From NCBI RefSeq assembly GCF_011045215.1, contig NZ_CP049201.1: a stretch of 64,000 nt of DNA, one strand, 5' to 3'. Within the stretch, counting starts at the first letter, position 1. Each line of letters starts with the position of its first letter. The position numbers and the translations under genes were made by a program. Under the pieces are notes generated by a model, which saw nothing but the letters and a program-made list of their open reading frames with translations, did no database searches and was not told the DNA's origin. The stretch comes from Escherichia coli. GTDB lineage: Bacteria; Pseudomonadota; Gammaproteobacteria; Enterobacterales; Enterobacteriaceae. This document shows, piece after piece, positions 9,248 through 63,555 of this stretch.

Positions 9248-9275
9248 ATGCTCTGTATAAGGATTATCCAATTCT

Positions 9276-9312
9276 AAAAAAAAGCCCGGACGACTGTTCG
9301 GGCTTGTCTTTT
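9276..9312. terminator. Bidirectional rho-independent terminator shared by ydbK (+) and micC (-)
   Basis: A8 run, hairpin GCCCGG-ACGACTGT-TCGGGC, then T-rich tract; read directly. Confidence 0.8.
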
Positions 9313-9385
9313 TATATGTTGGAAAATCAGTGGCAATGCAATGGCCCAACAGAAAATAAAATCTGTGACAATAAAGGCATATAAC
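9277..9385 (-). ncRNA. micC: MicC small regulatory RNA (Hfq-dependent, represses ompC)
   Basis: Minus strand reads GTTATATGCCTTTATTGTCACAGATTTTATTTTCTGTTGGGCC...CCGGGCTTTTTTT, matching the known MicC sequence; lies between ydbK and ompN as in K-12. Confidence 0.9.
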
Positions 9386-9612
9386 CCGCGCAGAATAACG
9401 TATAGAAAATTAAAAGTATAATTTTTATTTTGTATGTATTATCTTCGATACATTCACCAGACTTATTATCATTTCAGAGGAATTATTTGATTAAGGTTTT
9501 ACTTAAGGCGTAACAAATGATATTTATCGGCTAACTGAACTTCTCCTTTAGGATGTTTTCACTCCCCGAAATGGGGATCAAAGGCAAATAAAATAACTAA
9601 AGGATTTATTCA

Positions 9613-42820: not shown

Positions 42821-43277
42821 GTAAAAAAACACCCCGTCAAAGGCACCCGCAGATACCTTTTGTGTGGTGTTATCTGGTGTTTTCTGGTGTGGTGTGTGCA
42901 GGACACAGATGTGAAAAAGGTCCGCTGGTACGAACCCTGTATATGGATAAAAAAATGCCCGTCAGGAGACGGGCCAGAGCATTCATCGTGTAGTAATAGA
43001 ATTATATTTATATATGGTCGCCACCAGAATGAGTCGTCAACCTACAAAGCCATCCTGGCTTACTGTACGTGTGCGCATGGAACAGGTAACGACTCATTCT
43101 GCTAACGACGTTTACAAGTAATAATCACATACCATTATGTAATACAAAAAAAAGCAGCACTGAAACTGTAACCGTTCAGATATTACAGCATGAAGAAAAA
43201 CAATAGTACCTACAAAGCTGTTCTCCGCGAAAATTCGCCAGTGCTGATAAAGCTATGCCTCGTTTGTTTTACAGGAG

Positions 43278-43349
<72 letters not shown>

Positions 43350-43352
43350 ATA

Positions 43353-43428
<76 letters not shown>

Positions 43429-46059: not shown

Positions 46060-46197
46060 TTACTCCTCAGGTTCGTAAGCTGTAAAGACAGCGACCTCCG
46101 TCTGACCGATTCGGATTTGTACCTCACAGAGGTCTTTCCTCGTTACCAGTGTCGTCACTATGACGGTTAAACAGATGACGATCAGGACGATTAACAT
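46060..46197 (-). CDS. Hok/Gef-family type I toxin (HokD/RelF-like)
   Basis: Not in ORF track (<60 aa). Minus strand encodes MLIVLIVICLTVIVTTLVTRKDLCEVQIRIGQTEVAVFTAYEPEE*, closely matching HokD/RelF; in-frame GTG just upstream; 3' palindrome GGCGGGAGA...TCTCCCGCC after the stop. Confidence 0.75.
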   Translation of the reverse strand: MLIVLIVICLTVIVTTLVTRKDLCEVQIRIGQTEVAVFTAYEPEE

Positions 46198-46283
46198 CAC
46201 CTTTTGCTACTTTATAGCCTGCTATGCCTTTCATGCATTCTTGGCTATACTAACCTTATACCTACAACACGAGAGACGCAGAA

Positions 46284-47713: not shown

Positions 47714-48052
47714 TTATGCCTGAACCTTATTTCTCATCCATACACAAACCGGGCCGTCTTCCGTGTCATGAATGGAGCCAATAAACCACCCATCACCCTC
47801 TGGTCGTTCCGGCTCCCATGCGGAAATATCAGGACCATCCGCATCCGGATTAAAATCATCTTCATCCATTGCGCGAATGGTCCACTGAAGATTATTCGCC
47901 TTCATCCAGGCATTAAATTCTTCCGTCGAAATATACTCCCGGCCATCACAAAATTTTTCATATTCAGGATGTATCCAGCAGCCATATGCATCACGTTCTA
48001 CCGGCATTTCTTTGATTTCGTTCATAACATTAACTCCATTAAAATAATGCAA
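47714..48052 (-). CDS. Hypothetical acidic protein
   Basis: 112-aa ORF. Confidence 0.4.
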   Translation of the reverse strand: MHYFNGVNVMNEIKEMPVERDAYGCWIHPEYEKFCDGREYISTEEFNAWMKANNLQWTIRAMDEDDFNPDADGPDISAWEPERPEGDGWFIGSIHDTEDGPVCVWMRNKVQA

Positions 48053-48221
48053 AACAAATTAACCACACCACTACAACCGATGCTATTAACACCCTGATTG
48101 CAAACAGTGGACTGATATGTCGAAAAGGATTTTCCCAGATAATAAAAGCCGCTGCCAGAAATGCACTGATCAGGAAAACAATAACAAACAGCTCAATTTT
48201 GATTATCCAGAACATATTCAC
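48039..48221 (-). CDS. Small membrane protein
   Basis: 60-aa hydrophobic ORF overlapping neighbours. Confidence 0.3.
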   Translation of the reverse strand: MNMFWIIKIELFVIVFLISAFLAAAFIIWENPFRHISPLFAIRVLIASVVVVWLICFALF

Positions 48222-48508
48222 TGCATCGCCTTCTGTAAAATAACCGCATGCCCCAGCTTCTCCGCCAGTGCCAGTTCTGCCCTAGCACCTGCCGACCGCT
48301 GCCAGTCTTTCAGCATGTAAATCGCATCCACGCAGCGAATCATTGCCATGCAAATATCCATGTAGTGCGGCTGCGTCAGTCCGTCCGGAAGTACTGCCGG
48401 ATTTAAGACTGTGTGCCCATCCCGTTTCAGTTCCTCTTCCGCCTTGTGGAACGCCTCACGGTTGAAATTTTCATAGCCCGTCATTGGACCGGCGATATAA
48501 ACCCTCAC
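48218..48508 (-). CDS. Nucleoside 2-deoxyribosyltransferase-like protein (DUF4406-type)
   Basis: 96 aa beginning [27 protein letters not shown]... (Rossmann-like YIAGPMTG). Confidence 0.5.
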   Translation of the reverse strand: MRVYIAGPMTGYENFNREAFHKAEEELKRDGHTVLNPAVLPDGLTQPHYMDICMAMIRCVDAIYMLKDWQRSAGARAELALAEKLGHAVILQKAMQ

Positions 48509-48909
48509 TCCAGAACCCTCCTGTTGAAATAAACGTAGTTATTCACTGTGCGCAACGGCATTCCGAATTTTCTGGCAATTTCTCTCCTGGACACGCCACG
48601 CTGATGCAACTGTCGCACCAGCTCAATATCGCTCTGCGGATATTTTGTTGACTGGTGATAATCACCACGCAACATCATGCCGATACCCAGTTCCCGTGCT
48701 TTCGCCCTGACCGCCGGCTCACTACGACCAATCAGACTGCCGATGCTGTCGACTGTCATCGTTCCCGCACACTGCCGGAGCACCATGATTTCAGCCCTGC
48801 ACCACTTCTTCCAGCCACTCACCGCTACCGTTCTCCGGTGGCGATAATCTGTCTGACAATATCCTTGTGCCTGTACAGTTCCCGCAGCGCCGCGCAGACT
48901 CGCTCCCAC
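48505..48909 (-). CDS. Hypothetical HTH DNA-binding protein
   Basis: C-terminal HTH-like segment ([22 protein letters not shown]); true start probably internal. Confidence 0.4.
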
Positions 48910-58629: not shown

Positions 58630-58856
58630 GCGCAGCCACAAAGCTCACAGGAGAAAAACCAGTGCGATACACAAAAATTAAACCATGTCCATTTTGTGGT
58701 TGTCCATCAGTAACGGTGAAAGCCATTTCAGGATATTACCGAGCGAAGTGTAACGGATGCGAATCCCGAACCGGTTATGGTGGAAGTGAAAAGGAAGCAC
58801 TCGAAAGATGGAATAAACGAACCACTGGAAATAATAATGGAGGTGTTCATGTATAA
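58620..58856 (+). CDS. Lar-family restriction alleviation protein (RalR-like)
   Basis: 78 aa with zinc-ribbon motif KPCPFCGC...CNGCE typical of Lar. Confidence 0.6.
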
Positions 58857-59037
58857 AATTACCGCCACTATTGAAAAGGAAGGTGGCACTCCTACTAACT
58901 GGACAAGATATTCAAAATCTAAACTAACGAAATCAGAATGCGAAAAAATGCTCTCAGGTAAAAAAGAAGCGGGCGTTTCCAGAGAGCAGAAAGTAAAACT
59001 GATAAATTTTAATTGCGAGAAACTTCAGTCCTGGTGA
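58849..59037 (+). CDS. Hypothetical small protein
   Basis: Track ORF 58777..59037; internal start [10 protein letters not shown]... assumed. Confidence 0.35.
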   Translation: MYKITATIEKEGGTPTNWTRYSKSKLTKSECEKMLSGKKEAGVSREQKVKLINFNCEKLQSW

Positions 59038-63338: not shown

Positions 63339-63366
63339 AAAAAAAAGCCGACTCATCAAAGTCGGC
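63339..63366 (-). terminator. Rho-independent terminator ~190 nt downstream of zntB
   Basis: Minus strand: GCCGAC-UUUGAUGAG-GUCGGC followed by U8. Confidence 0.6.
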
Positions 63367-63555
63367 GTCGTACGAATCAATTGTGCTATGCAGTAATTCA
63401 AAAAAGGAAGTAAGACAATATGGAGCGCAACGCCCATCGCTTGACGTTGCATTCACCTGCAAGAGAGATATTGCCCTGAATGGGTAGAGAGTTTATTGAC
63501 TTCGCTCAAACTTTGCGGCGTTTTTGTATACAGACAGCCGGAAAAATTGCTTTTG

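Follow-up and report, generated by a model that had tools for sequence, protein, structure and literature searches.

The locus examined here raises a simple question: what does a 96-amino-acid (aa) protein of the DUF4406 family do for the prophage that encodes it? The gene lies on the minus strand at positions 48218-48508 of a 64,000-nucleotide (nt) stretch of Escherichia coli DNA (contig NZ_CP049201.1 of RefSeq assembly GCF_011045215.1), the whole of which we call the window. An initial annotation, made from the sequence alone, had described the product as similar to the DUF4406/nucleoside 2-deoxyribosyltransferase (NDT)-like family. Here we propose, with slightly less than even confidence and from sequence comparison, that the protein is an N-glycosidase or phosphodeoxyribosyl-transferase of 2'-deoxynucleoside 5'-monophosphates (dNMP) that acts on nucleotide pools during phage replication. 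The gene itself is unremarkable: it occurs very widely, has been annotated before and is an accessory gene of a catalogued family; what we add is a substrate prediction, dNMP and not nucleoside, together with a record of inconsistent public labels. Public annotations of DUF4406 conflict, naming it a dCMP (deoxycytidine monophosphate) deaminase, MazG, a hydrolase, an NDT or a hypothetical protein. If true, the proposal would correct one widespread mislabel, provide a second natural example, after the phage enzyme DmtZ, of phage enzymes working at the dNMP-base level, and offer a testable candidate for the manipulation of nucleotide pools by temperate phages.

The open reading frame (ORF) is a genuine gene, and both its exact coordinates and the translation quoted in the initial annotation are borne out. 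The features on which this rests are the following.

48218..48508, minus strand: DUF4406 coding sequence, 96 aa, GTG start and TGA stop, from the ORF list and the raw sequence
48517..48522, minus strand: Shine-Dalgarno sequence AGGAGG, within the 3' end of the upstream ORF, read from the sequence
48505..48909, minus strand: upstream helix-turn-helix (HTH) DNA-binding ORF, from the ORF list
48039..48221, minus strand: downstream hydrophobic ORF of 60 aa, from the ORF list

The AGGAGG lies 8 nt upstream of the GTG start, and the gene is joined to its neighbours by a 4-nt overlap on either side. At 48505-48508 the TGA of the HTH ORF overlaps the GTG of the DUF4406 gene within the sequence GTGA, an arrangement that suggests translational coupling; at 48218-48221 the TGA of the DUF4406 gene overlaps the GTG of the 60-aa ORF in the same manner. 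Related viral loci show this -4 overlap more often than any other arrangement, both upstream (41 of 70) and downstream (38 of 70) of the gene. Pairwise comparison of 58 distinct viral-contig alleles gives a median ratio of nonsynonymous to synonymous substitution rates (dN/dS, Nei-Gojobori) of 0.15, which indicates purifying selection and thus a selected coding gene. Taken together, the ribosome-binding site, the two overlaps and the dN/dS identify a real and selected gene whose translation is probably coupled to that of its neighbours.

By its sequence the product is an ordinary full-length DUF4406 member, as the initial annotation had supposed. Residues 1-90 cover positions 1-90 of the 91 in the Pfam DUF4406 profile (PF14359; E 1.9e-37, 128 bits against a cutoff of 22), and the protein also matches PHROG_355, which bears the label "nucleoside 2-deoxyribosyltransferase" (E 2.5e-46). 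We aligned 97 non-redundant sequences whose non-query members share <62% pairwise identity (alignment A1). Gly7, Phe20, Ser72, Gly74 and Glu78 are invariant in this alignment and all are present in the E. coli protein, as are Tyr4, Pro8, Asn36-Pro37, Pro41, Tyr49 and Trp69, which are nearly invariant across A1 and distant phage homologs. DUF4406 has a great many members: HMMER, run exhaustively, matched 11,005 clusters at 50% identity (E<=1e-3), tblastn found homologs in 516 phage records (phages of Vibrio, Gordonia, Arthrobacter, Mycobacterium, Pseudomonas, Aeromonas, Rhizobium and enterobacteria), and 845 complete E. coli genomes out of 5,426 contain similar DNA. Searches of NCBIfam gave no match to the protein, and a single-sequence search of the Protein Data Bank (PDB) gave no meaningful one. 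The family had been described as poorly characterised in prophages, and this holds: it is catalogued, and a literature search found no functional study of DUF4406, DUF1937 or PF14359, DUF4406 being mentioned only in passing.

What fold does such a short protein adopt? AlphaFold2, given A1 as input, returned a model with a predicted local distance difference test score (pLDDT) of 96.1 and a predicted template-modelling score (pTM) of 0.88. The model is a four-stranded flavodoxin-like fold of the NDT type with the following predicted elements, and the protein stops 5 residues past the last strand.

Residues 2-6: strand b1
Residues 13-29: helix a1
Residues 33-35: strand b2
Residues 46-58: helix a2
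Residues 62-65: strand b3
Residues 73-85: helix a3
Residues 88-91: strand b4

Among solved structures the model comes nearest to PA1492/DUF1937 (PDB 1t1j), followed by NDTs, MilB/BcmB and DNPH1. The leading matches of a Foldseek search are all NDTs, BcmB, MilB or DNPH1, with about 95 of about 150-160 target residues aligned. PA1492 shares 19% identity with the E. coli protein, which scores below the DUF1937 cutoff (18.8 bits against 23); being uncharacterised, it is uninformative on function. Compared with the sequences of solved structures, the A1 profile matched the NDT TbPDT best (2a0k, E 2.7e-4), then BlsM (0.0073), LmPDT (0.018), BcmB (0.054) and MilB (0.058). The profile and structure search that the initial annotation had proposed as a check thus recovers NDT similarity by both routes, and since NDTs are among the fold and the profile matches alike, its reservation that the protein might lack structural similarity to NDTs falls away.

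The fold is shared by enzymes with different substrates, and the residues lining the pocket bear on the choice between them. Equivalences were taken from HMMER alignments to 2a0k, 5vto, 6qai, 4jen and 4jel and from hhalign comparisons with rat Rcl (a sequence identical to PDB 2khz) and the DmtZ of Gordonia phage Ghobes; the alignments are concordant and give the following assignments.

Tyr4: the Tyr of the catalytic triad, on strand b1 (Tyr13 of Rcl; the Tyr of 'KIYIAGP' in TbPDT)
Cys53: the Asp/Asn position of the triad, on helix a2 (Asp in BlsM, Asn in TbPDT, Asn77 in DmtZ)
Glu78: the nucleophile, at the start of a3 (Glu103 of MilB, Glu93 of Rcl, Glu103 of DmtZ; the Glu of 'GTAFEVG' in 2a0k and of 'GTHVEIG' in BlsM)
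Ser72 and Gly74: Ser97 and Gly99 of MilB, Ser87 and Gly89 of Rcl

The spacing of the Ser-x-Gly-x3-Glu motif is identical in the three proteins (72/74/78 in the E. coli protein, 97/99/103 in MilB, 87/89/93 in Rcl), and the motif is common to DNPH1/Rcl, MilB, BlsM and BcmB. In the crystal structure of MilB with hydroxymethyl-cytidine monophosphate (hmCMP), Ser97 and Gly99 form hydrogen bonds with the phosphate (PMC4081090). The nucleoside transferases 2a0k and 6qai carry Asp at the position of Ser72, six residues before the Glu, within 'PDCGTAFE'. NDTs hold the 5'-hydroxyl (5'-OH) of their substrate by Asp or Asn, whereas in the hydrolases and DmtZ the residues here are small and uncharged, leaving room for a 5'-phosphate (PMC12884076). 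Six homologs from actinophages and Pseudomonas phages at 32-42% identity (Optimus, Shambre1, Halley, Bruin, ZoeJ and Orimi01) keep Tyr4, Pro37, Ser72, Gly74 and Glu78 without exception.

These residues allow the first alternative to be weighed, namely a classical NDT (EC 2.4.2.6) that exchanges bases between deoxynucleosides for salvage. The PHROG_355 label and many phage annotations say as much, NDTs are top Foldseek matches, and the protein has in common with the NDTs (PF05014; TbPDT 2a0k, LmPDT 6qai, CtNDT, LlNDT 1f8x) the flavodoxin-like fold, a conserved Tyr on b1, a Pro after b2 (Pro37, aligned with that of TbPDT) and a conserved Glu nucleophile opening a3. One metagenomic phage NDT is moreover a purine transferase preferring deoxyadenosine (bioRxiv 10.1101/2025.10.22.683976), but that enzyme is a PF05014 member, while the E. 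coli protein stays under the PF05014 gathering threshold (13.1 bits against 28.8, E 0.11). In place of the Asp that binds the 5'-OH it has the invariant Ser72, and in place of the triad Asp/Asn it has Cys53. NDTs are about 150-160 aa long; the 96-aa protein has no b5/a5 or tail, so that the C-terminal third is absent (the fold alignment covers about 95 of about 155 target residues). The fusion partners described below are nucleoside triphosphate (NTP) pyrophosphohydrolases, which yield monophosphates and not nucleosides. We therefore consider a classical NDT unlikely.

The same pocket could instead belong to a nucleotide N-glycosidase that is not deoxy-specific, acting on ribonucleotides of the CMP (cytidine monophosphate) or hmCMP type as MilB, BlsM and BcmB do. 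These three rank high in both the profile and the fold comparisons and have the Ser-x-Gly-x3-Glu motif in common with the E. coli protein; position 4, which is Tyr in 81 of the 97 A1 sequences, is Phe in 15, as in BlsM. The E. coli protein, however, has Tyr4, shared with Rcl, and a Tyr at this site of the triad is reported to shut out ribosylated substrates (PMC12884076). Nor is there an obvious counterpart of the base and phosphate contacts made in MilB by Phe22 and by Arg23, the basic gate residue: both are unaligned in the profile match. A ribonucleotide enzyme of this kind seems to us quite improbable.

We return to a dNMP as the substrate and state the proposal as a mechanism. The gene would be a delayed-early gene of a Rac-like lambdoid prophage, translated by coupling in an operon after the replication genes, and its product is a minimal member of the NDT superfamily, a DUF4406 protein of 96 aa and four strands. 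This protein would cleave the N-glycosidic bond of a dNMP: attack of Glu78 on C1' would yield a covalent deoxyribosyl-5-phosphate-enzyme intermediate, Tyr4 would position Glu78 and exclude ribo substrates, and Ser72 and Gly74 would hold the 5'-phosphate. The intermediate could then react with water, releasing the free base and deoxyribose-5-phosphate as in DNPH1, or with another base, giving phosphodeoxyribosyl transfer as in phage DmtZ. In this way the enzyme would edit or deplete a dNMP pool during phage replication. The analysis shows that the gene is real, that it belongs to DUF4406, that its product has the NDT-like fold and that the Tyr, Ser-x-Gly and Glu positions are conserved; the substrate class, the hydrolase or transferase outcome and the biological role are what we infer.

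Several observations weigh against this proposal. The triad Asp/Asn is absent, Cys53 being aligned at its position, and the general acid may consequently be missing. At the sequence level the resemblance to the nucleotide hydrolases is weak (MilB E 0.058; Rcl by hhalign E 0.02 with a probability of 2%; Ghobes DmtZ by hhalign E 0.071 over 48 columns); the fold matches to nucleotide N-glycosidases are strong. The residue equivalences come from alignments, not from a complex with a ligand. The b5/a5/C-terminal segment is absent because the protein ends after b4. In the structures of an NDT (LlNDT) and of Rcl this C-terminal segment contributes residues to the active site of the neighbouring subunit; in Rcl a second phosphate-binding Ser (Ser117) is supplied in this way by the partner subunit. 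The Rcl alignment stops at residue 106, and the Ser117 region is therefore absent from the E. coli protein, in which the conserved Asn16-Arg17 might substitute for the contacts made by MilB Arg23 or Rcl Ser117. Simple hydrolysis is not assured, as Pro37 is transferase-like: a Pro conserved in all transferases, Pro57 in DmtZ, keeps water out (PMC12884076), and Pro37 would be its counterpart. In this Pro, and in the lack of the C-terminal part and of the Asp, the protein departs from the DNPH1/Rcl group, which it resembles only marginally in sequence (E 0.02-0.06). Lambdoid prophages offer no further genes of nucleotide metabolism from which a pathway could be guessed, the gene has no conserved neighbour, and the literature searched gave no biochemical study of a DUF4406 protein.

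How serious is the loss of the triad acid? Position 53 is Cys in 62 of the A1 sequences, Asp in 16, Ala in 8, Thr in 5 and Gly in 3, and in the six distant homologs it is Asp in four and Ala in two. From these counts, DUF4406 as a whole keeps an NDT-like Tyr/Asp/Glu triad, and within DUF4406/PHROG 355 the enterobacterial subgroup has exchanged for Cys the residue that is mostly Asp in actinophage members. This variability raises a further alternative, a non-catalytic or very slow nucleotide binder, whose NDT pocket would serve for binding only and which would act as a sponge, sensor or regulator. A Cys at the general-acid position, variable in the subgroup, would fit such a protein, as would a truncated fold without the elements that complete known active sites, its very small size, the lack of a fixed partner and a closest solved structure, 1t1j, that is uncharacterised. 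Yet from enterobacterial to actinobacterial phages Ser72, Gly74 and Glu78 never vary and Tyr4 hardly does, a pattern typical of catalysis, and active relatives work with Asn at the acid position (Asn77 of DmtZ, and TbPDT; PMC12884076). We accordingly give a mere binder a low probability.

A second line of evidence on the substrate comes from the association of DUF4406 with pyrophosphohydrolases in other phages, of which the clearest case is a mycobacteriophage protein of 248 aa.

L087, 1480-2226: Halley gp165, a DUF4406+PRA-PH fusion

In Halley gp165 residues 28-111 are DUF4406 and residues 142-196 a PRA-PH/MazG-type pyrophosphohydrolase, and about 50 phage records cover >=80% of it, either as a fusion or as adjacent pieces. 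The related phage Optimus encodes them in separate genes, and a 33-codon ORF lies in between (gp161-163, L002 2477-3326); judged from sequence, the fused state in Halley and Redno2 and the split state in Optimus are the outcome of a recent fusion or fission event. The viral structure database BFVD also holds DUF4406-like folds within proteins named 'dATP/dGTP diphosphohydrolase', an observation made on names and not on sequences. MazG-type enzymes release a (deoxy)nucleoside monophosphate plus pyrophosphate, and the DUF4406-MazG fusion therefore points to a monophosphate substrate. The arrangement mirrors the DutZ-DmtZ pair found in Z-genome phages, for which experiments have shown conversion of deoxyadenosine triphosphate (dATP) to the monophosphate (dAMP) and of this to adenine or, by transfer, to the Z-base monophosphate dZMP (PMC12884076).

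Other apparent fusions did not hold. Optimus gp161, Shambre1 gp62 and Bruin gp108 are standalone DUF4406 proteins of 109-126 aa that are wrongly labelled, and the Halley/Redno2 type is the only true DUF4406+PRA-PH fusion among the apparent ones checked. In the cluster representatives of 220-358 aa, Pfam and PHROG revealed no additional domain with a known function, and these proteins are probably gene-call read-throughs or unknown extensions. In Mycobacterium phage ZoeJ, gp54 (L089 820-1503) is 227 aa long with DUF4406 at 126-218; its N-terminal 125 aa have no Pfam match and form an unexplained extra domain.

Labels in public databases are unreliable across the superfamily. Standalone DUF4406 proteins are called 'MazG-like pyrophosphatase', 'deoxycytidylate deaminase' or 'hydrolase', and even DmtZ of Gordonia phage Ghobes, whose activity is known from experiment, appears in GenBank as 'deoxyuridine triphosphatase'. 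Mislabelled superfamily genes are found at the following positions.

L002, 2477-2857: mislabelled superfamily gene
L003, 2492-2821: mislabelled superfamily gene
L088, 1135-1509: mislabelled superfamily gene
L086, 12693-13178: mislabelled superfamily gene

DmtZ (AOE44404.1) is itself an instructive comparison. Like the E. coli protein it is a phage member of the NDT superfamily without a PF05014 match, with a triad residue other than Asp (Asn77), small uncharged residues in the phosphate pocket and the transferase-type Pro; it is a dAMP hydrolase and deoxyribose-5-phosphate transferase, and it is joined to an NTP pyrophosphatase or encoded beside one, as DUF4406 is in mycobacteriophages. Unlike the E. 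coli protein, DmtZ has 161 aa and keeps the C-terminal part with its Trp124 lid. It is also confined to Z-genome phages with PurZ0, whereas the prophage here has no Z pathway. Homology between DmtZ and DUF4406 holds at the level of the superfamily only.

A possible parallel in biological role comes from counter-defence. The T5 protein Dmp, a 5'-deoxynucleotidase directed against Kongming, may share the role of removing a dNMP early in infection, but its fold and chemistry are unrelated; it is a phosphatase with a Mg-binding Asp22 and is not known to be linked to DUF4406. Kongming counter-defence had been considered as an NDT-like parallel and was set aside once the enzyme turned out to be a phosphatase. 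A bolder extension of our proposal, which we think has little chance of being right, is that DUF4406 proteins are the smallest natural NDT-fold enzymes (about 95 aa, here with Cys for the canonical acid), with which temperate phages early destroy or re-base a specific dNMP, in order to remove a damaged or non-canonical nucleotide or to starve a dNMP-dependent host defence, as T5 Dmp does against Kongming.

Where, then, does the gene stand in the prophage? Three small RNAs (sRNAs) orient the window.

58855-59033, minus strand: RalA antitoxin sRNA (Rfam)
63343-63460, minus strand: FnrS (Rfam)
9268-9388, minus strand: MicC (Rfam)

Because all three are present, the window is taken to be the Rac attachment region of E. 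coli with a Rac-like lambdoid prophage. Its best DNA match is E. coli OkiPb01716 (99.4% identity), whose copy of the gene is annotated in RefSeq as "DUF4406 domain-containing protein" (WP_072039421.1). The DUF4406 gene is preceded, on its own strand, by genes for a DUF1376 (O-like) protein, a DnaC/IstB-like ATPase, DUF1627 and the small HTH protein; downstream follow small ORFs, a Hok/Gef toxin, DUF1367, DUF1364 and DUF1133, then two transfer RNAs (tRNAs) and the lysis genes. The gene is thus downstream of the replication genes, in a position equivalent to the lambda nin region, where the initial annotation had put it.

A scan for promoters and terminators gave sites no more numerous than in shuffled sequence. 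Between the DUF4406 gene and a candidate at 52475-52446 it found no minus-strand promoter-like site, which fits our suggestion that the gene is transcribed from the early promoter beside the cro-like gene. Across 80 viral loci no neighbour is conserved in more than about 35%; the context is mosaic and the gene accordingly has no fixed partner, which fits a stand-alone accessory enzyme acting on host pools.

This setting bears on a last alternative, a glycohydrolase of the NAD+ or ADP-ribose type, TIR-like or retron-NDT-like, that serves defence or counter-defence signalling. The gene has no match in PADLOC, and neither membership of a TIR or SLOG NADase-type profile nor association with a defence system was found; sequence profiles tie the protein to NDT, BlsM and MilB and not to TIR. 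Instead of being a moron expressed in lysogeny or part of a defence island, the gene appears to sit in a coupled early lytic operon, with promoter-like sites at chance level and none on the minus strand as far as the candidate at 52475-52446. Such a signalling enzyme is in our view very unlikely.

The two ORFs that overlap the gene deserve a brief description. For the HTH protein the ORF extends to at most 134 aa, against 93 aa in RefSeq for a near-identical genome, so that its true start is uncertain; its sole PADLOC match, to mad1, is weak (E 0.0037) and probably reflects generic HTH similarity. The downstream 60-aa ORF has no Pfam match and is unannotated in the 99%-identical RefSeq record (the gap at L001 8927-9118). 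It encodes two hydrophobic stretches, MNMFWIIKIELFVIVFLISAFLAAAFIIW...LIASVVVVWLICFALF, and its product may be a coupled small membrane protein.

Two further features of the region lie farther along the minus strand.

46060-46200, minus strand: Hok/Gef-family toxin ORF, 46 aa, in the nin-like region
43277-43428, minus strand: prophage-borne tRNA-Gly(TCC) and tRNA-Thr(TGT), directly upstream of the lysis cassette

For the Hok/Gef ORF, Rfam reported no Sok-type antisense RNA at its gathering threshold. The RalR/RalA type I toxin-antitoxin pair is apparently kept in the window.
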